This document shows positions 7,509 to 37,624 of a DNA stretch of 64,000 nucleotides, piece after piece. The stretch comes from an uncultured Candidatus Saccharibacteria bacterium (lineage in GTDB: Bacteria; Patescibacteriota; UBA1384; 2-12-FULL-50-11; DASWYB01), in the NCBI GenBank assembly GCA_964372935.1, contig CAYJRF010000001.1, positions 8,993 through 72,992 on the forward strand, in the 5' to 3' direction. A model generated the notes under the pieces. It had not been told where the DNA came from. It was given only the letters and a program-made list of their open reading frames with translations, and ran no database searches. The position numbers were made by a program, and so were the translations under genes. How positions within the stretch are numbered: position 1 is the stretch's first letter; the number at the start of each line of letters is the position of its first letter.

Positions 7509-8634
7509 CGCGATGAGCCAGGTTTCTCAACGTGAACCGGCCGCGCGATTAATTTGGCTGGTGGGTGGTGGAACCGGAGGACATGTGATGCCCCTTTTGG
7601 CGGTGGCGGAAATTCTACGGCGCGACCCGAGAATTAAACTCCAGTTTATCGGCACCGCCGAGGGACCGGAGGTCGATTTAGCCCACGCCGCCGGTATTCC
7701 GTTTACGGCAATTCCCGCCGGCAAGTTGCGTCGGTACCTTACGCTTGAAAGCGTGGTGTTAAACGTGCGTGACTTGGCGCGTTTGGCTCGCGGCGTCTTC
7801 GTGGCGCGGAGACTGGTCCTTAAGCGAAGACCGGCAATAATTTTTACTAAAGGCGGGCCAGTCGCGCTACCGGCGGCGGTGGCGGCCTGGTGGACAAAAA
7901 CGCCATTGGTGATTCACGAATCCGACGCCGTGATGGGGGTGGCGAATCGGATTGTTGCCGGCGTTGCCAAACAGGTTTTTACGGCTTTTCCGGCGTCAGT
8001 CTATCCGCCGTCTCTGGCAAAAAAAATCATTCCCGTCGGCGTCCCTTTGAGGCGCGATTTTGGACGCCAGTCTCGCGTTCCCAAAAGTCGGCGGCCAATG
8101 GTTCTGATAACCGGCGGCAGTCAAGGGGCGGCGGCGATTAATCGGGCTATCGGCGCAATTTTGCCCCGCCTGCTCAATCGAGTGGCGGTGATGCACATCA
8201 CTGGCGCGGCGTCGTATCCAACGATGTTGCGGCTCAAAGAAGAGTTGCCGCCGCGTTTGGCGGAACATTACGGCGTGGTTGATTTTGCGAGCAATATTGC
8301 CGATTATATGCGCGAAGCCACGCTGGTAGTGTCTCGCGCCAGCTCGACGATCTTCGAGATCGCTACCCTTGGGAAGCCGATGATCCTGATTCCATTGCCT
8401 TCGTCGGCCAATGATCATCAAGTGAGAAACGCTGAAATATTCGTGGAAAATCGCGCCGCCTTAATGTTGCGACAGGAGAATTTGACGCCCGAACGGTTGT
8501 ATGAGACGATCAGCGAACTCCTCGGGGACTCGGTTTTGAGGAGACAGCTGGAGGAGGGGACGCGAGTATTTGGAAGCCGCGGGGCTGCCCAAGAGGTAGC
8601 CTCGTCGCTTAAACGGACAATTTTGATGGTATGA
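7495..8634 (+). CDS. murG: Undecaprenyldiphospho-muramoylpentapeptide beta-N-acetylglucosaminyltransferase MurG
   Basis: LVGGGTGGHVMP N-terminal motif and GT28 C-terminal domain; dcw synteny. Confidence 0.9.
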   Translation: MARPDAMSQVSQREPAARLIWLVGGGTGGHVMPLLAVAEILRRDPRIKLQFIGTAEGPEVDLAHAAGIPFTAIPAGKLRRYLTLESVVLNVRDLARLARGVFVARRLVLKRRPAIIFTKGGPVALPAAVAAWWTKTPLVIHESDAVMGVANRIVAGVAKQVFTAFPASVYPPSLAKKIIPVGVPLRRDFGRQSRVPKSRRPMVLITGGSQGAAAINRAIGAILPRLLNRVAVMHITGAASYPTMLRLKEELPPRLAEHYGVVDFASNIADYMREATLVVSRASSTIFEIATLGKPMILIPLPSSANDHQVRNAEIFVENRAALMLRQENLTPERLYETISELLGDSVLRRQLEEGTRVFGSRGAAQEVASSLKRTILMV

Positions 8635-10055
8635 CTTCTCCTCCCCACTCGCTTCACTTCATCGGCGTTCTTACGCCGGAAATGGCAAGTCTGGCCAGCT
8701 ACGCTCTCAAATCTGGGGCGTCGGCCAGCGGTTCTGACGACCATCGCGACTCGCTCTATTTGTCTTCGTTACTCGCGGCCGGACTGCGTTTTTGCGACAC
8801 GTTTAATCAGCATAATATTGCCTCAACAACCCAGGGCGTGGTGATTTCGCGCTATTATGACGCTCGCCACCCCGAATATCTGGCGGCGGCGAAGGCAAAA
8901 ATTCCGCTGATGACCGAGGCGGAGTACGGGCGGCAAATTACTCAAAACAGTCGCCGAGTGGCAGTTTTAGGTGAGTACGAGGGGCCGTTGGTGGCGACAT
9001 GGTTGCATCATGTTTGGCGCCAAGCTCATGTTTCGGTCCAAGCGTTGACTCATTCGGTGACGGAGAGTGATGATGGTTTGGCGTATCCGTCGGAAAGCGA
9101 GTGGTTTGTCGTGCCGTTTTCGGGCTTTAAACGCGACGCGACGGTATACGAGGCCGATTTTTTGTCAGCCGACGCCGAAATCGTCATCATGCCAAGCATC
9201 CGTTACGACTACCCGGAAATATATATGACGCTCGACGATGTTTATCACGCTTATTACACCTTTGCCCGACGAGTGCCGCGCCGCGGGTTAATAGTTGGTG
9301 ATAGCGACTACGCTCGAATGAAACGTTTGCGCACTCACTTGGTTGACCGGCATATCGAAACTTACGGGTTTGACCGCGATGCCGGCTGGCAGATTCGAGA
9401 TGTTGAAGAATCGGCCAACGAGGCGTCGTTTTCTCTCCTAAAAGGCAACCAGCTCTACGGGCCGTTTACCATCCCCTGTCACGGCCGCTGTTTTATCGCC
9501 GCGGCGGCGGCGGTGAGCGTGGTATCGCTCATGCTCGAGCTTAGTCCGGCAATCATCGCCCGCGGTCTGGCAACCGTGCCACGACTAAAACGATTCGGTT
9601 CAACCTACACCGACAGGGAGGGACGAGTCATCATTGACGACCGAGCCGATCACCCCGAAACGATTGAGGCGATTTTGACTTATTGCCGTCAAACATATCC
9701 ATCAAAAAAAATTTGGTGCTTGTACCAACCGGGATCTTTTTTAAGAACTAAAGCGGAAAACGACGGCCTGCAAAAGGCCCTGGGCTTGGCCGACAACATT
9801 TTTATCGCCGATATTAAGGGCTATCCGAAAGAAAAGTCGGAAGGTTTGCACGCCCGTCATTTTGTGGCCGAGTTCCGTCGGAAGCATCCCACAACTTACT
9901 ATCTTGAACCGGAATCGGACGTCAGTCGCTTGCTGTCCGATCGGGTTCCCCGTGATGATTGCATCGTCATACTGGGGGCGGACGGTCTGTTCGATCGCGC
10001 GGCGCGGCCGTTAATTAGGAGCGTTGCCAGCCAACCGGCTGGGTTGTCTTCGTAA
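8631..10055 (+). CDS. MurC-like Mur ligase homologue with degenerate nucleotide-binding motifs
   Basis: N-terminus LHFIGV...SGSD aligns to the MurC HFIGIGGxGMSGIA...SGSD Rossmann segment, but the glycines are replaced (LTPEMASLA). The position of the GTxGKTTT P-loop reads AVLGEYEGPLVAT. It lies between murG and murB, the canonical murC slot. Confidence 0.55.
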   Translation: MTSPPHSLHFIGVLTPEMASLASYALKSGASASGSDDHRDSLYLSSLLAAGLRFCDTFNQHNIASTTQGVVISRYYDARHPEYLAAAKAKIPLMTEAEYGRQITQNSRRVAVLGEYEGPLVATWLHHVWRQAHVSVQALTHSVTESDDGLAYPSESEWFVVPFSGFKRDATVYEADFLSADAEIVIMPSIRYDYPEIYMTLDDVYHAYYTFARRVPRRGLIVGDSDYARMKRLRTHLVDRHIETYGFDRDAGWQIRDVEESANEASFSLLKGNQLYGPFTIPCHGRCFIAAAAAVSVVSLMLELSPAIIARGLATVPRLKRFGSTYTDREGRVIIDDRADHPETIEAILTYCRQTYPSKKIWCLYQPGSFLRTKAENDGLQKALGLADNIFIADIKGYPKEKSEGLHARHFVAEFRRKHPTTYYLEPESDVSRLLSDRVPRDDCIVILGADGLFDRAARPLIRSVASQPAGLSS

Positions 10056-27158: not shown

Positions 27159-27233
27159 GCCACCTTAGCTCAGCGGAAGAGCAGCACTTTTGTAAAGTGA
27201 CGGTCGTCGGTTCGAATCCGACAGGTGGCTCCA
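27159..27233 (+). tRNA. tRNA-Thr (anticodon UGU)
   Basis: Cloverleaf with acceptor GCCACCT/AGGTGGC, D-arm GCTC-AGCGGAA-GAGC, anticodon loop TTTGTAA, T-arm GTCGG-TTCGAAT-CCGAC and an encoded CCA. The G27/A43 mismatch is also found in E. coli tRNA-Thr. Confidence 0.85.
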
Positions 27234-27330
27234 TAATTAGACTTTCCGATTTTTGACCGACGAACTGCTGGGCGGCACGAAGTGCCACCCGGTGGTTTTG
27301 TGGGGAAAATCCTCTTAGCTCGAACTTACT

Positions 27331-29094
27331 TTATGCCCCAACTCTATTTAAGTAATCCAAGCGATTTTTCTTGACGATCAAATTTTGTTGGGCCTTTATT
27401 AGCTCATCCTCAACCTTCCAAGGGCTCCCGGTTTTGTATGACTTCACCAGCTTTCCCAAGTAATCTTTCTCGCCATTATACCCGGTAAGTTCGTGGTCTA
27501 TTCTTAATATTTCATTCCTCAATTCCTTTTTCCGCCTGAATGAGAGCGCGCCGAGCTCATTAAGTTCTTCTTCGGCTTGAGCGCGTCGTGGTTCTAGATT
27601 TGCAATGGTGTTGTTTACTTCAGCAAGTCTCCTTTGGGCTTCATTTTCGCTATAAATATTTCCCCGTAGCGCTTGTTCTATAAAGACGTTCGCATCTTTT
27701 GCTTCAGATAATTTGACTTGAAGTTCTTGCGCTTCTGCCGCTACCTTAAAAATCTCGGCATTTAACTGGGCCTTTTCCTGTTCAATGGTCGCTTTTTCCC
27801 AATCTTGAATCGCTTTCATATCTTTTCGAAACTGTGCTTGTGCTCTGTCTTTTGTGTTTTTATCAGCATCACGGGAAACTATTGCGCTACCCTCATAAGC
27901 GTTCAGTTCATACCTGCCCATGTCCTGGTCAAATGATCGCCGTGAGTCCTTACTAAACCGTTGACCCAAAATGGTATCGCGGGAAAATGTAAGTCCTGAA
28001 GCGCTGGCACGCAAAAAGTTTAAGGTCCCTAAATGTTGGCGGATATAGTCGCCAACTGCGGCATCATTTTGGGGGCTACCACCAAATTCCCGATCACCGC
28101 TCGCAAGTCCTAAAAATCCTGCGGTGCCAGCCATAGTGCCGTGTTTGCCGACCAAATTTTTTAACAAAACTCCGACATACTCGTCTCTTTTAAGACCAGC
28201 CAAACTCAAAGGACCGCTTTCCGCTCCACCACCAGCTTGAGATGCAACGGCTTGAGTAACTTCTCGCATAGCTCGTTCTCTTTCCTTGGGATCTTTGATT
28301 TTATTGAATCCGCGAGCTTCAAATTCCTCTGTCAAAAAACTCTGCACCACTTGCGACATTATTTCCGTCTCTTTTGGGTCTCTCCGAACTCCCCACATCG
28401 CACATTCAACCACATTATCCCTCATCTCGTTCTCCGCTTTAGCTTCAGCAAACAGGCGTTCAATCATGTAGGGGTTAGCTTCTATATCAGCAACTTGCGC
28501 GTTAAGGTCACCCATTCCCTCTAAAAGCTTTTGGTATCTTTGAATTTGCACATCGGAAATAGATTCGGCCTTCATTGTTTCGAGTTCTTGGGTTAGTTCT
28601 CGCAGAATTTTTTCCACCTCCGACTTTTTCCCTTGAGCCTGCTTGAAAGCCCCTTTTACTTCTTCGGCAATCTCTCGTTCTTCTCTGCTTGCCATTAGGG
28701 ATTGGATTTCTGTGAGTTGGCGTTCAATCTGACCAAATTCGCCTTGCGCTTTTTGGAGTTCTGCTTCTTTAGCCGTTTGACTTTCTCTGAGTTTTTCAGA
28801 GTTAGCAATTCTTTCCTCAATGTGATACGCTCTAAGTCTGTCAACTTCAGATTGAGACGATCTTAACCCCGCCAAAGCTGATTCTCTCGGCGCTATATCT
28901 TCCTTGGCGCGAGCTTGTAGCTCTTTTTGGTGTTGTTCTTCCGCCTCCTGTTCTCTTTTCGTTTCAACTGTTTCGGCGTCTTTTCTGGCTTGTGCCGCTC
29001 TTAATTCTTCTAAGCTCAATGTCTCTGGCTCAGTTTTTTCTTGCTCTGGTGGCGCCGCCTGCGGTGGTTGGTTGAATGGATTTTCCGTGCTCAT
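27331..29094 (-). CDS. Large acidic coiled-coil protein (hypothetical)
   Basis: 587 aa, extremely E/K/Q/R-rich with heptad-like periodicity throughout and no enzymatic motifs. The gene is visibly lower in GC than its flanks. Confidence 0.6.
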   Translation of the reverse strand: MSTENPFNQPPQAAPPEQEKTEPETLSLEELRAAQARKDAETVETKREQEAEEQHQKELQARAKEDIAPRESALAGLRSSQSEVDRLRAYHIEERIANSEKLRESQTAKEAELQKAQGEFGQIERQLTEIQSLMASREEREIAEEVKGAFKQAQGKKSEVEKILRELTQELETMKAESISDVQIQRYQKLLEGMGDLNAQVADIEANPYMIERLFAEAKAENEMRDNVVECAMWGVRRDPKETEIMSQVVQSFLTEEFEARGFNKIKDPKERERAMREVTQAVASQAGGGAESGPLSLAGLKRDEYVGVLLKNLVGKHGTMAGTAGFLGLASGDREFGGSPQNDAAVGDYIRQHLGTLNFLRASASGLTFSRDTILGQRFSKDSRRSFDQDMGRYELNAYEGSAIVSRDADKNTKDRAQAQFRKDMKAIQDWEKATIEQEKAQLNAEIFKVAAEAQELQVKLSEAKDANVFIEQALRGNIYSENEAQRRLAEVNNTIANLEPRRAQAEEELNELGALSFRRKKELRNEILRIDHELTGYNGEKDYLGKLVKSYKTGSPWKVEDELIKAQQNLIVKKNRLDYLNRVGA

Positions 29095-29233
29095 ATTTAT
29101 ATGGTTTATTAATTGACTTTTTTATACTAGCATAAAACAAAGTCAACAAGCTACTTGTTAACAATTTCCGTCACAGCAAAAAAGCGAGGACGGCTCGGCA
29201 TACCTCCCCCTAACCCCCTCCTGTCGAGCCGTT

Positions 29234-29521
29234 GTGAAAATTTTGGGAGGGGTTCATGTGTCAACAGAAACAGCTCAACCAGTCGAATTGCCATCGGAAT
29301 CTCCTGAAGAAAACCCTCCTGCGACGGAAGTAAAAAAGGAGTTGCCTCAATTAAGTCCGCCTGATAATAAAGGGTGGTGGTTTCACCATTTGCCAGACGG
29401 TGGTAAGCATTCTGACAAATTAAGCAGGATGGATAGGCGCAATTATGATGCCGGAGAGCGAATCAACGTTCATTGTCAGTCATGTCCCGACAATCCGTTG
29501 GTTGGTTATTTACAAAAATAA
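29234..29521 (+). CDS. Small hypothetical protein
   Basis: 95-aa ORF in a low-GC intergenic stretch with no recognisable motifs; coding status uncertain. Confidence 0.25.
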   Translation: MKILGGVHVSTETAQPVELPSESPEENPPATEVKKELPQLSPPDNKGWWFHHLPDGGKHSDKLSRMDRRNYDAGERINVHCQSCPDNPLVGYLQK

Positions 29522-29724
29522 TTAATATATATATGTATCGACGAATTACCAGAACAATATAAAAAGGATAATTGACGCTGAGGGCAGATTTAGAAGAAAA
29601 AATCGGGTGGGAGCAAAATCAGAATCGCAGACAAGACTTTTCTGTAGTGGGGCAGCTTCCGTAGGACAGGAATTTTTGATAAAGTAAGGTTCGAGCGAAG
29701 TCATAAAGATACTCCATAAGACCG

Positions 29725-29812
29725 GCTGGGGTAGTCTAAGCGGTCAAAAGCGGTAGACTGTAAATCTACTGGCATTATGCCTTCGGGGGTTCGAATCCCT
29801 CCCCCAGCACCA
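29725..29812 (+). tRNA. tRNA-Tyr (anticodon GUA), long variable arm, anomalous D-arm
   Basis: Acceptor GCTGGGG/CCCCAGC, perfect anticodon arm GTAGA-CTGTAAA-TCTAC, variable arm GGCA-TTA-TGCC, T-arm GGGGG-TTCGAAT-CCCTC and an encoded CCA. The D region (GTCTAAGCGGTCAAAAGCG) does not form a canonical stem and contains a direct AGCGGT repeat. Confidence 0.7.
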
Positions 29813-30031
29813 CGTAGTAACTTTATCGGAATTGACTGCTCCGCGCGGGCTGGCAAATTTTTGAGCGGCGACTTATCAAAAATGATGTAAGGAAGGCGTC
29901 GCCAATCGCAGTGGCCCCATCTGCCGATTTATTTATTGAGAAACCAAGTAACAAGTTTTTGATTCACAGATAAATGGTAGTTAATTTTGCCTAATTTGGC
30001 CAGCGTTCTTTGACCGCAGAATGCCCGTTAA

Positions 30032-32227
30032 TTATAACTTCTGCTTTTTCAGCATCAGGGCGTTTAACGCCACAATGACCGTGGATAGCGACATCAATAC
30101 AGCGGCAAGGGCCGGTTGAAGAAAAATACCTTTGAACGCCAGCACGCCCGCGGCGAGGGGAATGGCGACAACATTGTAGCCCGTAGCCCAAAAAAGATTC
30201 TGAATCATTTTGCCGTAAGTCAGGCGAGACAAGCGGATGATTTTGGGAATATCGCGCGGATCGTTTTTGACCAAAACAATGCCCGCCGATTCAATCGCCA
30301 CGTTAGTCCCCGCGCCGATTGCGATGCCCAGATCGGCTTGAGTCAGCGCCGGAGCGTCATTTATGCCGTCGCCCACCATGGCAACTTTTCGGCCTTTTGA
30401 TTGGAGCATTTTTACTTTCTGCGATTTTTGGCCGGGCAATACCTTGGCATAGTACTCATCAATGTCAAGCTCTTTCGCCACCCACTGAGCAACGTCTCGG
30501 CTGTCGCCGGTAATCATGGCAGTTTTAATGCCCATGTTGCGGAGCGATTTAATGGTCTCGCGCGATTCTTCGCGAATAATGTCGGCGAGAGCGATCGCGC
30601 CGAGGAGGGATTTTCCCTTGACGGCGAATATGATCGTTTTCCCTTGCGCCGAAAGCTGGTCAATTTTAGTTTTCGTTTGATCGTCAAGAGGCAATCCCAA
30701 GTCGGTTAGCAACGTTTGGCTGCCAACTAAAACCTCCAACCCGTCTACATTGGCTCGCGCCCCTTTTCCGGCTATCCGCTGAAAATTTCTTGCCGCGGAA
30801 AGTTTGAGATTTTGTTTGTTGGCTTCGGCAACGATGGCGCGGGCGATAGGGTGTTCCGACTGACGATCCACCGAAGCGGTATACCGCAGCACAGTCGCCT
30901 CGCTTTCTTTGCCCATGGGGATAATCGCCTCGACGCCGAACTCTCCCTTGGTGAGCGTTCCGGTTTTATCAAACAGCACGATGTCAATATTGCGTGCCGC
31001 TTCAAGCGCCAACCGTTGTTTGACCAAAAAACCGTTCTGGGCCGCTTTAGTGGTCGAGATTGAAGCCACTAAGGGAATTGCCAACCCGAGGGCGTGAGGG
31101 CAAGCAATCACCAGCACGGCCACCATCCGCTCGATGGCAAACACCGGGTCCGCCAAGATAAGCCAGCTGGCTAATGTGATTGCGCCAACGGCGACGGCGA
31201 CGACAGTAAGGTAAAAGGCGGCTCTGTCGGACAATATTTGCAAGCGCGATTTGGAACTTTGGGCTTCGGCAACAAGACGCATTACCCCCGCCAAAAAAGT
31301 TTTCTCGCCAATGTTGGTGACTTTTATTTTGAGGGTGCCATCGCCGTTTATCGCTCCGGCGATCACGGCGCTCTCTGGTTTTTTGGGCACCGGTTTGGAT
31401 TCACCGGTGGCGATTGACTCGTTAACGTCGGAGATACCCTCCACCACAACTCCATCTGTCGGAATTTTTCCCCCGGGTTTTACCATCACTATGTCGCCAC
31501 TTTTAACATCAGCAAGGGGAATAATTCGCGTCTTGTCGCCTTGGATAATCTCCGCTTGATCGGGCAAGATCTTTGACAGCTCTTTTAAGGCGCCTTGGGC
31601 GTTCGAGACTGCCCGCATTTCCATCCAGTGTCCAAGAAGCATGATTGTGATCAGCGTCGCCAGTTCCCAAAAAAGAGTTTCCGTGCCTCCCGAAAGAATA
31701 GTGTAAACGCTGTAAATGTAGGCAACGGAGATGGCCAAGGAAATGAGCGTCATCATGCCGGGCAGTTTGGCTTGTAATTCCCGTCCGGCCGCGGCGATGA
31801 ACATCCAACCGCCATAGAAAAAAATGACCGAAGCGAGGATAAACGGCACATAGGTCGAGCCGGGAAATGTTGGCGCGGTAAAGTTCACCAGCTCGCGGAC
31901 GATGTTCGAGTAAAGAATCACCGGAACGGAGAGAATCAAACTGACCCAAAACTTTGTCTTGAATATATTGGTCGAATGTCCCTTGTGTTTGTCAAAGTCG
32001 TCATGATGATGACGCGTCTGTGGTTTGGCGGCAGGTACAAGCTGCATGCCACATTCCGGGCACTGCCCGTGGCTTTGACGACGAATTTCGGGATGCATGG
32101 GGCAGATGTATGTTTGCACTGGTTCGGGCATAATATCTTTCAGCGACTGGCTAGCCGCGACATTGAGCGTCGCGCGACGTTTTCCGGTGAAGCCGTTGGT
32201 TTGTTGAATTTGAGCCGCATCAACCAT
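30032..32227 (-). CDS. Heavy-metal P1B-type ATPase, CopB-like (CPH motif)
   Basis: DKTGTLT phosphorylation motif, TGES and GDGINDAP motifs and a CPH motif in TM6. The N-terminal His-rich stretch and CPMHPE...CPECGM metal-binding domain are also present. The true start may be internal, at MPEPVQ... Confidence 0.85.
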   Translation of the reverse strand: MVDAAQIQQTNGFTGKRRATLNVAASQSLKDIMPEPVQTYICPMHPEIRRQSHGQCPECGMQLVPAAKPQTRHHHDDFDKHKGHSTNIFKTKFWVSLILSVPVILYSNIVRELVNFTAPTFPGSTYVPFILASVIFFYGGWMFIAAAGRELQAKLPGMMTLISLAISVAYIYSVYTILSGGTETLFWELATLITIMLLGHWMEMRAVSNAQGALKELSKILPDQAEIIQGDKTRIIPLADVKSGDIVMVKPGGKIPTDGVVVEGISDVNESIATGESKPVPKKPESAVIAGAINGDGTLKIKVTNIGEKTFLAGVMRLVAEAQSSKSRLQILSDRAAFYLTVVAVAVGAITLASWLILADPVFAIERMVAVLVIACPHALGLAIPLVASISTTKAAQNGFLVKQRLALEAARNIDIVLFDKTGTLTKGEFGVEAIIPMGKESEATVLRYTASVDRQSEHPIARAIVAEANKQNLKLSAARNFQRIAGKGARANVDGLEVLVGSQTLLTDLGLPLDDQTKTKIDQLSAQGKTIIFAVKGKSLLGAIALADIIREESRETIKSLRNMGIKTAMITGDSRDVAQWVAKELDIDEYYAKVLPGQKSQKVKMLQSKGRKVAMVGDGINDAPALTQADLGIAIGAGTNVAIESAGIVLVKNDPRDIPKIIRLSRLTYGKMIQNLFWATGYNVVAIPLAAGVLAFKGIFLQPALAAVLMSLSTVIVALNALMLKKQKL

Positions 32228-32409
32228 AATTGTACCATCAACCTAGTCTTTTATCCCTTTTAACTGGCAACAGTGGCGTCGGCCGCGTCCGACTGGGCGC
32301 CAGCCTTTTTTTTTGGTACAATTTCCGTGATAATCGCTCTAGGTTGGCTTAATATGTCGAGCGATAAAAAATCGCCGGTTGACGACAGGCCGATGGAGCG
32401 ACCGCCCGC

Positions 32410-32484
32410 GCCCACGTAGCTCAGCGGTAGAGCAACTCCATGGTAAGGAGTAGGTCGGCGATTCAAATTCGCCCGTGGGCTCCA
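32410..32484 (+). tRNA. tRNA-Thr (anticodon GGU)
   Basis: Acceptor GCCCACG/CGTGGGC, D-arm GCTC-AGCGGTA-GAGC, anticodon arm ACTCC-ATGGTAA-GGAGT, T-arm GGCGA-TTCAAAT-TCGCC, discriminator T and an encoded CCA. Confidence 0.85.
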
Positions 32485-32503
32485 CAGAAAGGAAATACTT
32501 CTT

Positions 32504-32665
32504 ATGGCCAAAACTAAAGTTCATCAAGCGATTATGGAGTGCTCGGTTTGCGGCGAGCGTAATTATCACACCAAACGCAACGTCAACAATATTAAGGAGC
32601 GTTTGGTGTTAAAAAAACATTGCCCAAAATGCCGCAAACATACCGAACACGCCGAAACTAAGTAA
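32504..32665 (+). CDS. rpmG: 50S ribosomal protein L33
   Basis: 53-aa ORF not in the supplied track: MAKTKVHQAIMECSVCGERNYHTKRNVNNIKERLVLKKHCPKCRKHTEHAETK, matching the L33 pattern with two CxxC pairs. RBS AGAAAGGAAA lies upstream. Confidence 0.8.
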   Translation: MAKTKVHQAIMECSVCGERNYHTKRNVNNIKERLVLKKHCPKCRKHTEHAETK

Positions 32666-32714
32666 CTGGCGATTCGGCGTTGGGCAAGGTTTGCCGTTTG
32701 TGATTGTGATTCAC

Positions 32715-32785
32715 GGGGGGTGCGCTGGGCGCGGGAGGGTCTCCAAAACCCACCTCGAAGCGTTCGATCCGCTTACCCCCTGCCA
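32715..32785 (+). tRNA. tRNA-Trp-like (anticodon CCA) with truncated D-arm; possibly a pseudogene or non-canonical tRNA
   Basis: Acceptor GGGGGGT/ACCCCCT (one G-U pair), canonical Trp anticodon loop CTCCAAA on a GGGT/ACCC stem, T-arm AAGCG-TTCGATC-CGCTT, discriminator G and an encoded CCA. Only 14 nt (GCGCTGGGCGCGGG) lie between the acceptor and anticodon stems, so the gene is 71 nt. The 3' end overlaps the start of repeat R1. Confidence 0.45.
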
Positions 32786-32830
32786 AAGAAACCTAGGAAT
32801 CGAACCATAAAAAGAGAACCGTCCCCAATT
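32780..32830 (+). repeat. 51-bp intergenic direct repeat R1, copy a
   Basis: ctgccaaagaaaCctaggaatcgaaccataaaaagagaaccgtccccaatt, repeated at 33374..33424 with a single mismatch. Confidence 0.9.
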
Positions 32831-32878: not shown

Positions 32879-32917
32879 TAACCCAGTAAGCAGCAGAGCG
32901 GCTACTTTTTTGGTATA
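32879..32917 (+). repeat. 39-bp direct repeat R2 (hairpin plus T-run plus TATA-like box), copy a
   Basis: taacccagtaagcagcagagcggctacttttttggtata is identical at 34435..34473 and degenerate at 33519..33552. In all three copies it sits 20-25 bp upstream of an ORF start. It contains an imperfect hairpin AGCAGC-AGA-GCGGCT followed by T6 and GGTATA. Confidence 0.85.
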
Positions 32918-32937: not shown

Positions 32938-33357
32938 ATGTCAGAGCATCTATCACCGAACGATGAATACGCAAATTGGACAGCTCCAGACCCTTCTCCA
33001 CAAAGCGAGCGTCCTGGCGGTGAATTACATACCCGGCCAATTCAAGGATCGGACGGACAGTGGCAGGATGGGTATGGCAATAGAATATCGGAAACAGAAG
33101 CTAGGGATATTGATTACGCAACCCGATTCTGGCGCCAGCAACCCGCAGGACAAAAGCAAGCAATGCAAGAAATAATTCAAAATCAGGTAGAATTGGGCAA
33201 ATTTAGCTTATTTGTTAGCCCATCGGGGATAAGCGAGGGAGATGAGGAAAAACTTTCTGCTTATCGTCTGTTAGCACGAGAAATGGGGTATGAGATTGGT
33301 TCGTTTCATTTTAACCCAAACGCTCACACAGTCACTGCCGAAATAAAAACATTCTAG
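32938..33357 (+). CDS. Hypothetical protein (cassette ORF 1)
   Basis: 139-aa acidic ORF with a good RBS (ACGGAGG) and no recognisable motif; followed by motif R3 (ctccacgatggcc) and repeat R1b. Confidence 0.45.
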   Translation: MSEHLSPNDEYANWTAPDPSPQSERPGGELHTRPIQGSDGQWQDGYGNRISETEARDIDYATRFWRQQPAGQKQAMQEIIQNQVELGKFSLFVSPSGISEGDEEKLSAYRLLAREMGYEIGSFHFNPNAHTVTAEIKTF

Positions 33358-33373
33358 CGTTCTCCACGATGGC

Positions 33374-33424
33374 CTGCCAAAGAAATCTAGGAATCGAACC
33401 ATAAAAAGAGAACCGTCCCCAATT
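33374..33424 (+). repeat. 51-bp direct repeat R1, copy b
   Basis: ctgccaaagaaaTctaggaatcgaaccataaaaagagaaccgtccccaatt; 50 of 51 bp identical to copy a. Confidence 0.9.
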
Positions 33425-33452
33425 GCCTTGCAATTGCCTTGCAATTGCCTTG
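33420..33452 (+). repeat. Tandem repeat, 3 x 11 bp (caattgccttg)
   Basis: Three perfect head-to-tail copies immediately after R1b. Confidence 0.9.
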
Positions 33453-33560
33453 GATTGGCGGTAACCGAATTACTATCTAACCGATACCCTTGCGGTAACC
33501 TTCTTTTCTATCTAATGCGAGTAAGCAGCATAGCGGTTGCTTTTTTGGTATTGTGCAAGA

Positions 33561-34376
33561 ATGATAAAAATTCAAGCGAGTGGTGAAATTCAACCATTAG
33601 ACATTGATGGCTATATTATTAATACCAGCTCTCTGGATAAGATAGTTCCACCTTGGAAAGAAGCAATTGAAGACGTTTGCCAGACATATATCAAAAAGTT
33701 TGGTGAGGGGCTACATAGCATTTATTTGCGTGGTTCGGTTCCTAGTGGAAAAGCAATAGATGGAATCTCGGATTTAGATTCAATTGTGATTATTAAAGCT
33801 GATCATTCAGACTCGGTTGACCTTTCGTGGTTTAATGATTTTGCTGAGACGCTCATTATTAAATATCCATACGTGAGCGAACTTGAATTACTATGGGTAA
33901 ACTATGCTAGCTTACTCAACCCGGATAAGTTAACAAATGTACGTATCCAGCTGGCTATCTATGGCTTGTGCATCTATGGCGAAGACATTATTCCACAGTT
34001 ACCAAAATTTAAACCAGGACGCGACACTATTATTCATGCGCCATGTATTGATAAACAGATTGATGAAGCGATCGAAAAGATTAAACTGCGCGACACATCG
34101 GATGGGGTAAAGGGAGCTTGTACTTGGATCATGAAATCATTTCTACGAGTGGGTTGTGAGCTGGTGATGGAACGCGAACATGTATATACGCGCGACCTTT
34201 ATTGGTGTTATAAGTTATTCGCTCAATACTATCCAGGTACAGCAGATGCTATGTATCAGGTGCTCGATTATGCACTTAACCCAATTGACGATCGAGAAAA
34301 GTTAAGCTCATTTGTAAAAGATTTTGGATTTTGGCTTAGTCAAGAAGTAAAAGCACAAGGATTGGTTAGAAAATAG
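33561..34376 (+). CDS. AadA/ANT(3'')-ANT(9)-like nucleotidyltransferase (Pol-beta NTase domain plus DUF4111-like C-terminal domain)
   Basis: N-terminal NTase motif LRGSVPSGKAIDGISDLDSIVII (G[GS]...DhD). The C-terminal region (VKGACTWIMKSFLRVG...DLYWCYKLFAQYYP) parallels the AadA C-terminus (VVLTLSRIWYSAVTG...ADWAMERLPAQYQP). The gene is strongly low-GC and begins at ATG 33561; the computed ORF begins at an upstream TTG. Confidence 0.6.
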   Translation: MIKIQASGEIQPLDIDGYIINTSSLDKIVPPWKEAIEDVCQTYIKKFGEGLHSIYLRGSVPSGKAIDGISDLDSIVIIKADHSDSVDLSWFNDFAETLIIKYPYVSELELLWVNYASLLNPDKLTNVRIQLAIYGLCIYGEDIIPQLPKFKPGRDTIIHAPCIDKQIDEAIEKIKLRDTSDGVKGACTWIMKSFLRVGCELVMEREHVYTRDLYWCYKLFAQYYPGTADAMYQVLDYALNPIDDREKLSSFVKDFGFWLSQEVKAQGLVRK

Positions 34377-34434
34377 GTTCGAACATTGTCGGCGATCCTC
34401 CGCCGTTAAAACTTCGGAAGGACAAGTGGTCTGA

Positions 34435-34473
34435 TAACCCAGTAAGCAGCAGAGCGGCTACTTTTTTGGTATA
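34435..34473 (+). repeat. 39-bp direct repeat R2, copy c
   Basis: Identical to 32879..32917; ends 8 bp before the ATG of the next ORF. Confidence 0.9.
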
Positions 34474-34481
34474 ACACGGAC

Positions 34482-34949
34482 ATGGAAGGTGATCCCAAAA
34501 AACCGATTCCAATTTTATATGACACGTATCTTGCGGTTATTAAAAATGGCGTCGAATCAAAAATGTTCCGTCATTTTTATGCTTATGTCGACGGCAACAA
34601 GGTGGATATTGTAAAGGGCGGGGAGTTAGCTTGTGGTTTTTTTGTTTCGTTCGTCCTCCACAATTTTAAGCTAATAGGCGAGCCTCATTTAACTGTGGCC
34701 GGCACAGAGAAAGATCTCCAAGAATTGGGTTGGCAAGAAATTGGTAGAGATAATCTTAAAGAAGGATGTGTCTTAATCTGGCAGAGTGAGGCCTCTGATG
34801 CCGACGCCCACAAACATATTGGATTCTATATCGGGAACGACCGAGCAGTGAGTACAGATTCCAAGCTGGGAGTTGTTTCCGAGCATCACTTTACTTTTAA
34901 TAACAGCCGACCAATCGAAAAGGCGTATTGGTTCGAACAATTGAAATAA
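34482..34949 (+). CDS. Putative papain-fold hydrolase, NlpC/P60-like (cassette ORF 3)
   Basis: Cys in GGELACGFFVSFV, then about 60 aa later HIGFYIGNDRAVS...EHH, resembling the NlpC/P60 Cys...H(V/I)GIY(I/V)GNG...H arrangement. Low GC; followed by motif R3 (ctccacgatggcc). Confidence 0.35.
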   Translation: MEGDPKKPIPILYDTYLAVIKNGVESKMFRHFYAYVDGNKVDIVKGGELACGFFVSFVLHNFKLIGEPHLTVAGTEKDLQELGWQEIGRDNLKEGCVLIWQSEASDADAHKHIGFYIGNDRAVSTDSKLGVVSEHHFTFNNSRPIEKAYWFEQLK

Positions 34950-35077
34950 GAATCGTCCTAGCGGCCTCCACGATGGCCCGGTAAAGAAAAAAGCGGCTCA
35001 TGGCCTTAGGGGGCTTGCCGAGATGATGATTCAAGAATTACGCTAAAAACTAATGACATCCCACCAAAAGAAGCAAA

Positions 35078-35109
35078 TTACAATTAATACTTATTACAAT
35101 TAATACTTA
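35078..35109 (+). repeat. Tandem repeat, 2 x 16 bp (ttacaattaatactta)
   Basis: Two perfect copies in the AT-rich spacer after the cassette array. Confidence 0.85.
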
Positions 35110-35128
35110 CAATGCCGCCGCGACGGCG

Positions 35129-35404
35129 TTGGCAAAAAAATATCGCGCTATCGGTTCTCGCCGACAAGACGTCGAACGGGTGATGAATTACGTCAGCGCG
35201 ACCAATCCGAAAGTAGTCGAGTTGGGCAGTGCAGGTCAAGTGGTTGATGGGGCTCGGCATTGTTCCGAATGCGGGATGCTCCTCGCCTTCGGAAGAGACT
35301 TTTTTCCGCTAGGCGAGTCGGTGCCGCTTGCGCGCAGCAGTCCTCCGGCGGGAAAGCGACGGGCGAAGGCAGAAAAGAATATGCCCACGGACGACGACGA
35401 CTGA
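35129..35404 (+). CDS. Hypothetical protein (TTG start), doubtful
   Basis: 91-aa ORF with a non-ATG start and a single CxxC pair. GC jumps sharply here; coding status uncertain. Confidence 0.2.
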   Translation: MAKKYRAIGSRRQDVERVMNYVSATNPKVVELGSAGQVVDGARHCSECGMLLAFGRDFFPLGESVPLARSSPPAGKRRAKAEKNMPTDDDD

Positions 35405-36727: not shown

Positions 36728-37024
36728 TTCCCCTCCTCCTCTCATCACACCGACCGATTTAGACCGGACTGCAGACAACATAGCATAAAAGGTATATTTT
36801 GTCAAGTGTCTGCATGCGTCCATAACATATGAGATTTTTGGTCATACACATGAACGGCAGTACTCGCTCCGGTTCGCACGCGGTGTTGTACTGCGCCGCG
36901 ATGTGCGCTAGAGTTTAGGCATGATTTCAAATCATAAATTAATGACTTGGTCGAGTTTTATCAAAGCGTTGTTTTATTTTTCTGTCTGAGAGGGCAGATT
37001 TTTTGTTTGAAAAAGGGGGAAGGG

Positions 37025-37624
37025 ATGAGTGATATGCTTGTTGAGCTGCTCGGGGTTGAACGAGAACAGGCAAGACAACGACTGCGTTGCGACGGCGTAG
37101 TGGTCGTGCGAAACGTCTTTAGTCAAGACGCCGCGACGGCGTTGGCCCACGAAGCGCAACGGCTGAAGTTTGAGCTTCAGCCGGCAGTTTACGGCTCGCG
37201 CAGTGTGCAGCAGGCGGTGGCCTGCGCCGATATCGCCCCGAGGGGTCGGCTGTGGGAGTTTGCCGACGCCGTGGAGATAGCTATGCAGAACATGGTTGGA
37301 GACGAAGCGATGACTGTGCCGCTCGGCTTCAACCGCCGCGTCGTTCAATGGTATCGCCCCGAGACTATCGGTATTGGGTCTCATCGCGACGAGAGTCGCT
37401 ATCGCAACCTTGTTGTCCTGTGCGGTTTGAGTGGCTATGGTCGGTTCAAGCTCTTCAGGGGGTCAAGCGGGGCGCTTTACCTCACCAGAAAGGTGGGTCC
37501 GGGCGACGTCGTGGTAATGATCGCGCCCGGATTTAACGGCCGTGACGATCGTCCGGTGCATGCCGTCGATCAAATTCAAGGAGAACGCTATGTTCTGGCG
37601 TTGCGTCGGGACGATCGGGCGTGA
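37025..37624 (+). CDS. Putative 2-oxoglutarate/Fe(II)-dependent oxygenase superfamily protein
   Basis: HxD...H arrangement (IGSHRDE ... PVHAVD) in a predicted beta-rich protein of about 200 aa; assignment by motif pattern only. Start at ATG 37025 with GGGGGAAGGG upstream. Confidence 0.3.
   Translation: MSDMLVELLGVEREQARQRLRCDGVVVVRNVFSQDAATALAHEAQRLKFELQPAVYGSRSVQQAVACADIAPRGRLWEFADAVEIAMQNMVGDEAMTVPLGFNRRVVQWYRPETIGIGSHRDESRYRNLVVLCGLSGYGRFKLFRGSSGALYLTRKVGPGDVVVMIAPGFNGRDDRPVHAVDQIQGERYVLALRRDDRA

Follow-up and report, generated by a model that had tools for sequence, protein, structure and literature searches.

The subject of this analysis is a gene for a two-domain nucleotidyltransferase (NTase) on a 64,000-nucleotide stretch of contig CAYJRF010000001.1 (positions 8,993 to 72,992; hereafter the window). 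It lies on the plus strand as the middle one of three small, unrelated open reading frames (ORFs) in a low-GC islet at ~32.8-35.1 kb. A first-pass annotation, made from the sequence alone, had described it as an AadA/ANT(3'')-like gene (ANT, aminoglycoside nucleotidyltransferase) carried as a low-GC cassette gene. We found that the protein belongs to a separate, so far undescribed family within the known ANT-type two-domain Pol-beta nucleotidyltransferases. Its gene was most likely gained by horizontal transfer, together with the two small genes on either side, next to a tRNA/rpmG cluster. The gene and its principal elements are the following.

33561..34376, plus strand: coding sequence of the two-domain nucleotidyltransferase (ORF list, homologues, AlphaFold2 model, Foldseek).
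33729..33779, plus strand: Pol-beta NTase signature R57-G58-S59...S70-D71-L-D73, with predicted metal and triphosphate ligands (conservation, alignment to AadA).
33885..33887, plus strand: E109, third catalytic carboxylate and putative general base, by position the equivalent of AadA E87 (conservation, model, low-stringency hhalign).
34038..34355, plus strand: five-helix C-terminal domain, residues 160-265, with the motifs CxWIMK, RxGFELVMERE, YTRDLY, and FxxYYP (model, conservation).

The ORF encodes 271 amino acids between an ATG start and a TAG stop, as given by the ORF list and the sequence. An alternative TTG start at 33537 exists and would lengthen it; this start is unsupported because the homologues begin at the ATG and the matching database protein, P0001, also has 271 amino acids. 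The ORF is far beyond chance. A word-indexed search returned 43 homologues, with E values down to 1e-56 outside the protein's own cluster, and an exact look-up found the identical protein assembled independently from two sequencing runs (two ~1-kb Logan contigs).

An AlphaFold2 model built on 41 homologues reached a mean pLDDT of 96.2 and a pTM of 0.90. It shows an N-terminal alpha/beta domain, which follows a conserved extension of ~30 residues, and the five-helix C-terminal domain. The motifs quoted in the first-pass annotation are present (LRGSVPSGKAIDGISDLDS, residues 56-74, and WCYKLFAQYYP, residues 215-225), and the model agrees with its description of a Pol-beta NTase motif joined to a C-terminal helical domain. 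Conservation was assessed on an alignment of 145 family representatives. G58, G140, and R196 are invariant, and R57, S59, S70, D71, and D73 are conserved in at least 94% of the representatives. A threshold of at least 90% adds G8, G17, Y55, G63, and G198, as well as D212, L213, F220, P225, M231, L235, and P241. The position of E109, on the model strand 108-114, is occupied by E or D in 141 of the 145. The window protein retains every family-conserved position, and the two-metal NTase site is therefore intact. With R57-G58-S59...D71-L-D73 for the hG[GS]x9-13Dh[DE]h motif, E109 as third carboxylate, and the alpha-beta-alpha-beta-alpha-beta fold in the model, the hallmarks of the Pol-beta NTase superfamily are all present. 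The acceptor-side surface is distinct and strongly conserved.

Sequence models recognised the protein poorly. The window NTase gave no Pfam or NCBIfam match even at E≤1, and a PHROGs scan gave no informative one. Among the 41 homologues, 27 matched PF01909 (NTP_transf_2) and nine PF18765 (Polbeta), for both of which the window protein lies below detection. No Pfam model covers the C-terminal domain in the window protein or in the 41 homologues scanned.

In a Foldseek search of the PDB, places 1-12 were taken by ANT(9) from E. faecalis and AadA from S. enterica and E. coli, all matched over the full length (E 6e-7 to 5e-5, TM score 0.50-0.57, identity 13-17%). The alignments to 6XZ0, 5G4A, and 6FZB span 273-285 columns and display the two-domain ANT architecture. 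ANT(4') (TM 0.46) and LinB (TM 0.34) followed with E values of 2e-4 to 9e-4. DrrA (TM 0.35), GlnE, CD-NTases, and MNT antitoxins ranked well below the ANTs, with CdnE/CdnC at TM 0.22-0.27. A search of the PDB with the family profile returned ANT(4')/LinB at E 0.013-0.2, for the N-terminal domain alone.

PF13427 (DUF4111, the AadA C-terminal domain) was found in none of the 41 homologues, whereas it is present in all 120 AadA-family matches listed; for the window protein, neither this model nor the NCBIfam models for ANT(3'') and ANT(9) matched at E≤1. An hhalign comparison of 41 family and three AadA sequences aligned 47 columns with 42% probability, covering the NTase motif alone. With 145 family and 40 AadA sequences, 55 columns around GS...DxD were aligned with 67% probability. 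Full-sequence homology to AadA was considered and rejected: hhalign yields the motif alone, and forced global or low-mact alignments are suggestive but low in confidence. The AadA-like label of the first-pass annotation thus holds for the fold, since ANT(9) and AadA rank first among full-length structural matches, but not for family membership. The parallel that it drew between the W...LFAQYYP segment and AadA was statistically undetectable; 87 of the 145 representatives have P in place of W215, a position that is not conserved.

For residue comparisons, the AadA1 sequence used was checked against the PDB. It is near-identical to PDB 7UY4 and aligns gap-free with residues 12-256 of S. enterica AadA, so that the AadA residue numbering can be transferred. 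In AadA, S36, S46, D47, D49, and E87 serve ATP and Mg; R192, K205, and Y231 of the C-terminal domain contact the ATP phosphates; W112, D182, and H/N185 serve spectinomycin and streptomycin ring C; W173 and the 177-178 insertion serve streptomycin (Stern et al., 2018; PMC6065190). The NTase signature aligns by hhalign to AadA G35-S36...S46-D47-x-D49. Under low stringency, E109 falls opposite E87, and in the low-confidence C-terminal part R196 falls opposite R192 and R211-D212 opposite K205-D206, with no conserved Tyr opposite Y231. R211 is R in 113 and D212 is D in 135 of the 145 representatives. The NTase shares the AadA architecture and probably its mode of holding ATP.

On the acceptor side, the same low-confidence alignment places A186/W189 opposite D182/H185, with position 186 variable in the family, and shows no counterpart of W173 or of the 177-178 insertion in the window protein. 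The equivalent of AadA 92-125 has shrunk: the model runs from strand 108-114 to helix 125-134 within ~10 residues, and the W112 segment is therefore missing. Conservation of the AadA substrate-binding residues, which the first-pass annotation had named as a check, was not borne out. Judged by sequence, the NTase stands outside the ANT(3'')(9)/ANT(9) family and lacks the AadA acceptor pocket; because the pocket differs, streptomycin and spectinomycin are not the predicted acceptors. We therefore consider it very unlikely that this is a genuine ANT(3'')/ANT(9) resistance enzyme adenylylating one or both of these drugs. The top Foldseek ranks, the intact catalytic triad, and a homologue on a small mobilisable plasmid would suit such an enzyme, as would a GNAT-fused family member, to which bifunctional ANT/AAC enzymes are a parallel. 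Against these stand the lack of any NCBIfam match, ANT resistance models included, the missing PF13427, the restriction of hhalign to the NTase motif, and the divergent acceptor side.

Matches to smaller NTases raise the alternative of a toxin-antitoxin or anti-phage component (the MNT of a HEPN-MNT pair, AbiEii, or a CBASS cyclase). The best PDB sequence match is the 120-amino-acid minimal NTase 9xbd, PADLOC gave weak matches to PDC-S09 (E 2.8e-4) and CD-NTase (E 0.057), and the gene sits in a variable islet. These matches span just the ~70-residue NTase core, whereas the window protein has a second domain and twice the size of an MNT, and MNT and CD-NTase structures reach TM scores of only 0.2-0.3. 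No PF08843 or HEPN match was found in the NTase or its neighbours. Neither the window nor any of the 76 related loci has an adjoining gene for HEPN, AbiEi, or an effector, and no small partner recurs in those loci. The cyclase models reached no better than the E value of 0.057 given above. A phage origin was rejected: no relatives were found in IMG/VR, GenBank phages, or PHROGs, and fold matches in BFVD were weaker than those in the PDB. A toxin-antitoxin or anti-phage role is, in our view, scarcely credible. The first-pass annotation had named an AbiEii/MNT partner or a conserved housekeeping context as contrary evidence; both were looked for, and neither was found.

The family is large. An exhaustive profile search gave at least 739 representative clusters (50% identity) at E≤1e-30 and 1484 at E≤1e-10. 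A literature search found no paper on the family or on NTase-JmjC or NTase-CmlA pairs. The nearest homologue, P0002, shares 67% identity and lies on another contig in another low-GC context. At that locus (L036, 2000-6000), ~4 kb have a GC content of 0.37-0.43 between flanks of ~0.49; the P0002 gene, a Peptidase_S51 gene, and three family-less ORFs are closely spaced there, beside an rpoA-like gene. We read this contig as like those of the candidate phyla radiation (CPR), with another compositionally foreign patch. All other homologues share at most 42% identity and come from Cyanobacteria, Bacteroidota, Bacillota, Proteobacteria, and Acidobacteria.

Gene neighbourhoods were compared in 33 loci from GTDB species genomes (Cyanobacteria, Saprospiraceae, Salimicrobium, Betaproteobacteria, Solibacteraceae) and 46 from metagenomes, with 76 non-identical members. 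Neighbouring ORFs were called and clustered, and recurrent ones were named by Pfam. A JmjC_2 gene is immediately adjacent in 16 of the 76 loci; it is convergent in Cyanobacteria, and upstream and co-stranded with gaps of 3-12 nt in most loci of the Betaproteobacteria type. A CmlA-like diiron beta-hydroxylase is encoded directly upstream in 15 loci, nine of which then carry a PF04185 phosphoesterase and seven a non-ribosomal peptide synthetase (NRPS) two genes upstream. The genes of these NRPS/CmlA-like clusters are co-directional with short gaps, and the one NRPS protein scanned had condensation, adenylation, thiolation, and thioesterase domains (C-A-T-TE). In total, the NTase adjoins an iron hydroxylase in 31 of the 76 loci, the two hydroxylase types being unrelated folds. 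Furthermore, a gene for a secreted CotH protein lies downstream in 13 loci. Longer family members are fusion proteins, with GNAT at the C-terminus, with a Hanks-type Pkinase domain at the N-terminus (three clusters), or with an HxlR DNA-binding domain.

The hydroxylase context includes a conserved soil/peat metagenome operon with NRPS, NRPS (C-A-T-TE), CmlA-like, NTase, PF04185 phosphoesterase, and DUF6072 genes, which looks like an uncharacterised biosynthetic cluster. NRPS/CmlA-like/NTase operons were located in L045, L054, L059, L061, L064, L068, and L079, at ~8001-8800 in loci of 16.8 kb. A shorter CmlA-like/NTase/phosphoesterase form occurs in a Solibacteraceae metagenome-assembled genome (L017).

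Searches with tblastn found 28 plasmid records with NTase relatives. A stand-alone relative of 37% identity is encoded on the 8.9-kb MOBV-mobilisable plasmid pBwiPL1-6 of Bacillus wiedmannii (AP022649.1, 7282-8124; L089), where it lies close to a gene for a 335-amino-acid 'penicillin-binding protein'. Two plasmid relatives are on megaplasmids of B. thuringiensis and B. toyonensis.

With moderate confidence, we interpret the window protein as an active, horizontally acquired, stand-alone O-nucleotidylyltransferase with an acceptor pocket unlike that of AadA, probably protective and acting on a hydroxyl group of a small molecule or peptide. A hydroxylated small-molecule or peptide acceptor is suggested because the fold neighbours are small-molecule ANTs, the contexts include hydroxylases and NRPSs, some family members are joined to GNAT or kinase domains, and relatives are carried on plasmids. 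In the proposed mechanism, the N-terminal Pol-beta alpha/beta domain would supply the GS loop and, through D71, D73, and E109, the two-metal site. ATP, or another nucleoside triphosphate, would be held between the domains, with the C-terminal helical bundle closing over the nucleotide and R196 and R211/D212 probably binding the triphosphate as R192 and K205 do in AadA. E109 would act as general base on the acceptor hydroxyl, and the nucleoside monophosphate would be transferred; the group donated is most likely AMP from ATP. The modification may inactivate a harmful compound, or tailor or mask a product. In the CPR host, the enzyme would act alone, most plausibly modifying and thereby neutralising an exogenous compound.

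Several points weigh against this interpretation. The family has no characterised member, and the acceptor is a guess. The TM score to AadA is just ~0.55, with a root-mean-square deviation of 6-7 Å, and the residue equivalences in the C-terminal domain rest on a low-confidence alignment. Neither a JmjC nor a CmlA-like nor a CotH neighbour is present in 32 of the 76 loci, and the window itself lacks an informative neighbour, as the other two islet ORFs resemble no neighbour in the 76 loci. The contexts are heterogeneous, and JmjC, CotH, and Pkinase proteins, which typically modify proteins, would suit a protein substrate equally well.

For this last reason, a protein acceptor stays a serious rival. 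The enzyme would then be a protein nucleotidylyltransferase, an AMPylase like DrrA/SidM or GlnE, acting on Ser, Thr, Tyr, or a hydroxylated residue. In the family-profile search of the PDB, ANT(4') is accompanied by the DrrA AMPylation domain (E 0.015-0.03), two family members touch Pfam SidM_N, DrrA and GlnE are among the Foldseek matches, and the JmjC_2, CotH kinase, and Hanks-type Pkinase neighbours or fusions are of protein-modifying types. We nevertheless hold it to be unlikely. The best full-length structures are small-molecule ANTs with TM scores of 0.50-0.57, as opposed to 0.35 for DrrA; the large NRPS/CmlA-like subgroup points to an amino-acid or peptide metabolite; the CotH neighbours bear signal peptides and the NTase none; and nothing in the window links the gene to a candidate target protein.

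A more specific form of the small-molecule interpretation, which we put forward as speculative and doubtful, is that the family represents an unrecognised class of AadA-fold NTases working with iron-dependent hydroxylases. Once a hydroxylase had introduced a hydroxyl into an amino-acid or peptide metabolite, the NTase would nucleotidylylate it; the partners would be JmjC proteins in Cyanobacteria and Betaproteobacteria and CmlA-type diiron beta-hydroxylases in the NRPS clusters of Acidobacteria-type loci. The modification might serve masking or self-resistance, reversed by the neighbouring phosphoesterase, or activation as a leaving group. On this view, the stand-alone copy captured by the CPR bacterium would serve to neutralise such a compound, produced by neighbouring organisms or by the host of the bacterium.

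The origin of the gene is reflected in its composition. The coding sequence has a GC content of 0.388 and a third-position GC content (GC3) of 0.335, compared with 0.548±0.030 and 0.618±0.043 for 37 other ORFs of the window, which places its GC3 more than 6 standard deviations away. Sliding GC is 0.37-0.46 from ~33050 to 35150, and reaches at least 0.5 again from ~35150. All three islet ORFs have a GC3 of 0.34-0.42. They are accompanied by repeats, as listed here.

32779..32830, plus strand: 52-nt direct repeat, copy 1, beginning in the last 7 nt of a tRNA-Trp call and extending 45 nt downstream.
32879..32917, plus strand: 39-nt upstream module before ORF1, with TGGTATAGT, then GGAGG, then ATG (repeat scan).
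32938..33357, plus strand: ORF1, first islet gene, 139 amino acids, no family match, GC3 0.371 (family scans).
33373..33424, plus strand: second copy (98%) of the 52-nt direct repeat, situated after ORF1 and before the NTase gene.
33514..33552, plus strand: diverged (79%) 39-nt module before the NTase gene, with a 7-bp hairpin, a T-run, and the extended -10-like TGGTATTGT.
34435..34473, plus strand: 39-nt module before ORF3, 100% identical to 32879-32917, bounding the NTase gene on its 3' side.
34482..34949, plus strand: ORF3, third islet gene, 155 amino acids, weakly NlpC/P60- or Amidase_5-like cysteine peptidase (ACGFF...HIGFY), GC3 0.417.
34951..34989, plus strand: 39-nt repeat (79%) of the post-ORF1 sequence 33347-33385, marking the 3' side of the islet.

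These data confirm the low GC and the bracketing repeats noted in the first-pass annotation and support the horizontal acquisition that it proposed; the repeats are confined to the islet. Zero chance occurrences of the 33-nt core of the 39-nt module are expected in the window, and searches for the module elsewhere in the window, in 90 fetched loci, and in viral contigs found no further copy. Two further repeats were observed: an 11-nt tandem repeat, CAATTGCCTTG, in about three copies at 33420-33459, after ORF1 and before the NTase gene, and, at the right edge of the islet (35077-35108), two perfect ATTACAATTAATACTT units in tandem. The GTTCGAAC palindrome near three cassette junctions was discarded, as its four occurrences in the window against 1.9 expected are not significant.

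ORF3 matched Amidase_5 (E 7e-4) and NLPC_P60 (E 3e-3) in Pfam, below the cut-off, and PRK10838 in NCBIfam (E 8e-5); no signal peptide was found in it. ORF1 and ORF3 are not regarded as cognate partners of the NTase, because they show no similarity to the neighbours in the 76 related loci.

The 39-nt modules end in T6-GG-TATAgt, T6-GG-TATTgt, or T6-GG-TATAac, which resemble an extended -10 element. A similar TTTTGGTACAAT occurs at 32311, ~90 nt upstream of a tRNA-Thr gene (32410), and T6-GG-TAT-type patterns number five in the window where 1.0 is expected. For the NTase gene (TATTGT, 33549-33563) and ORF3 (TATAAC, 34470-34484), the ATG begins 7 nt after the hexamer (6-nt spacer), the hexamer is preceded by TGG and a T6 run, and there is no Shine-Dalgarno sequence; ORF1 has a GGAGG leader. 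By consensus, each islet ORF thus appears to stand behind its own promoter-like element, and the spacing suggests that the NTase and ORF3 transcripts are leaderless. We also considered whether the module could be a terminator, an attC site, or a structured RNA, and rejected this, since the 7-bp hairpin forms in the diverged copy alone and the z-scores are insignificant.

These elements bear on the integron analogy drawn in the first-pass annotation, which we abandon. The inter-ORF segments showed no significant folding (z -1.9 to +1.1), an inverted-repeat scan found nothing attC-like, and no recombinase or IntI family was found among the ORFs scanned at 21.7-41.8 kb, a scan that did not include every small ORF. 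Because of this lack of attC-like structures and of a recombinase among the scanned ORFs, the term 'cassette' is fair only loosely, for a unit that is modular and self-promoted.

It could also be argued that the gene is a passenger, recently transferred, unexpressed or decaying, and without a role in its host. The strongly foreign codon usage, the lack of functionally linked neighbours, and the resemblance of the islet to a patchwork of duplicated flanks are what one would expect of a passenger. The frame is full-length, however, and all invariant and near-invariant family residues are kept; a promoter-like element immediately precedes it, separated from the ATG by 6 nt, as in ORF3; and the identical protein sequence was assembled independently in two runs. 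We regard a passenger as improbable. A scan of genome contigs for a close relative lacking the islet gave only relatives with at most 41% identity.

The islet adjoins a group of tRNA genes into which accessory genes have been interposed.

27159-32785: cluster of tRNA-Thr, tRNA-Tyr, tRNA-Thr, rpmG, and tRNA-Trp, with accessory genes interposed.
27331-29094, minus strand: ORF of 587 amino acids, no family match, foreign GC3 of 0.396, interrupting the tRNA cluster.
30032-32227, minus strand: Cu-type P-type ATPase, best matches in Nealsonbacteria, Wolfebacteria, and other Parcubacteria.

The tRNA/rpmG cluster looks like an insertion hot spot. Homologues of the P-type ATPase with 70-81% identity occur in Nealsonbacteria, Wolfebacteria, Niyogibacteria, Sungbacteria, Doudnabacteria, and other CPR lineages, which suggests that this gene has spread laterally among CPR bacteria. 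In the three contexts inspected (loci L085-L088), the homologues are non-syntenic, and the flanking ATPase therefore gave no empty-site comparison. The tRNA-Trp(CCA) call of ARAGORN at 32715-32785 has 71 nt, a shortened D arm, the anticodon at position 29, and an encoded CCA. The Rfam tRNA model, which found the other four tRNAs, missed it at the gathering score and also at E≤5 in a 2.6-kb search; the call may be an atypical tRNA or a remnant.

The host belongs to the CPR (Patescibacteria), as indicated by divergent housekeeping genes and best matches in Patescibacteria. For several models, the products of the dcw/mur genes of the window, as well as its penicillin-binding proteins, type IV pilus proteins, IleRS, and TopA, fall far short of the equivalog cut-offs. 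An ORF of 225 amino acids at 36947-37624 (plus strand), 2.5 kb downstream of the NTase gene, has a host-like GC content and a weak match to 2-oxoglutarate/Fe(II) oxygenases (E 0.002) with an H-x-D...H pattern. It showed no BLAST similarity to the JmjC proteins of the relatives, and unrelated ORFs separate it from the NTase gene.

A fold- or motif-based call of this protein as 'AadA-like' by annotation pipelines or resistome surveys would be wrong, and the family behind it, which counts at least 739 clusters (50% identity), has neither a curated model nor a characterised member. The hydroxylase link seen across the family most deserves following up: members recur beside hydroxylases of two unrelated kinds and occur in an NRPS cluster, a concrete and testable lead to new nucleotidylylation chemistry on hydroxylated amino-acid or peptide substrates. 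Should an antibiotic prove to be inactivated by the enzyme, a new resistance determinant would already be present on a mobilisable Bacillus plasmid, as the family already travels on small mobile plasmids such as pBwiPL1-6. With regard to CPR biology, the islet illustrates how a reduced genome gains single, self-promoted accessory genes at a tRNA/ribosomal-protein cluster.

Among known systems, the islet resembles integron cassettes in that a small gene of foreign composition stands in a tandem series of unrelated genes separated by repeats. Integron cassettes are promoterless; the islet differs from them in its repeats, which lie upstream of each gene and are promoter-like, in the absence of attC, and in its CPR host.

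At the level of the protein, MNT antitoxins (9XBD chain E, 7AE9, 6M6W) and DrrA/SidM (3NKU, 6YX5) have the NTase core motif in common with the window protein, and the best raw sequence matches are to them. MNTs are single domains of 100-140 amino acids with a HEPN partner, whereas the window NTase has 271 amino acids and two domains and is partnerless. DrrA carries other flanking domains, and the full-length TM scores of MNTs and DrrA to the window NTase are 0.26-0.35. The kanamycin nucleotidyltransferase ANT(4') (1KAN/1KNY, 6P01), which acts as a domain-swapped dimer, and LinB/Lnu(B) (3JYY) likewise combine an NTase domain with a helical C-terminal domain; the structural similarity to them is lower than that to AadA, and no sequence model matches.

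The closest counterparts are AadA (4CS6, 5G4A, 6FZB) and the ANT(9) enzyme AAD(9) (6SXJ, 6XZ0), with which the window NTase shares two domains, a length of ~260-270 amino acids, and the GS...DxD...E set. Probably, it also holds the triphosphate as AadA does, with a C-terminal Arg (R196 for R192) and a pair of a basic residue and Asp (R211-D212 for K205-D206). Identity to AadA and ANT(9) is 15-17%, profile similarity is confined to the NTase motif, and the W112 loop, D182, H/N185, W173, and the 177-178 insertion are not kept. Unlike AadA, the family has an N-terminal extension of ~30 residues with the conserved G8 and G17, and strongly conserved C-terminal motifs of its own.

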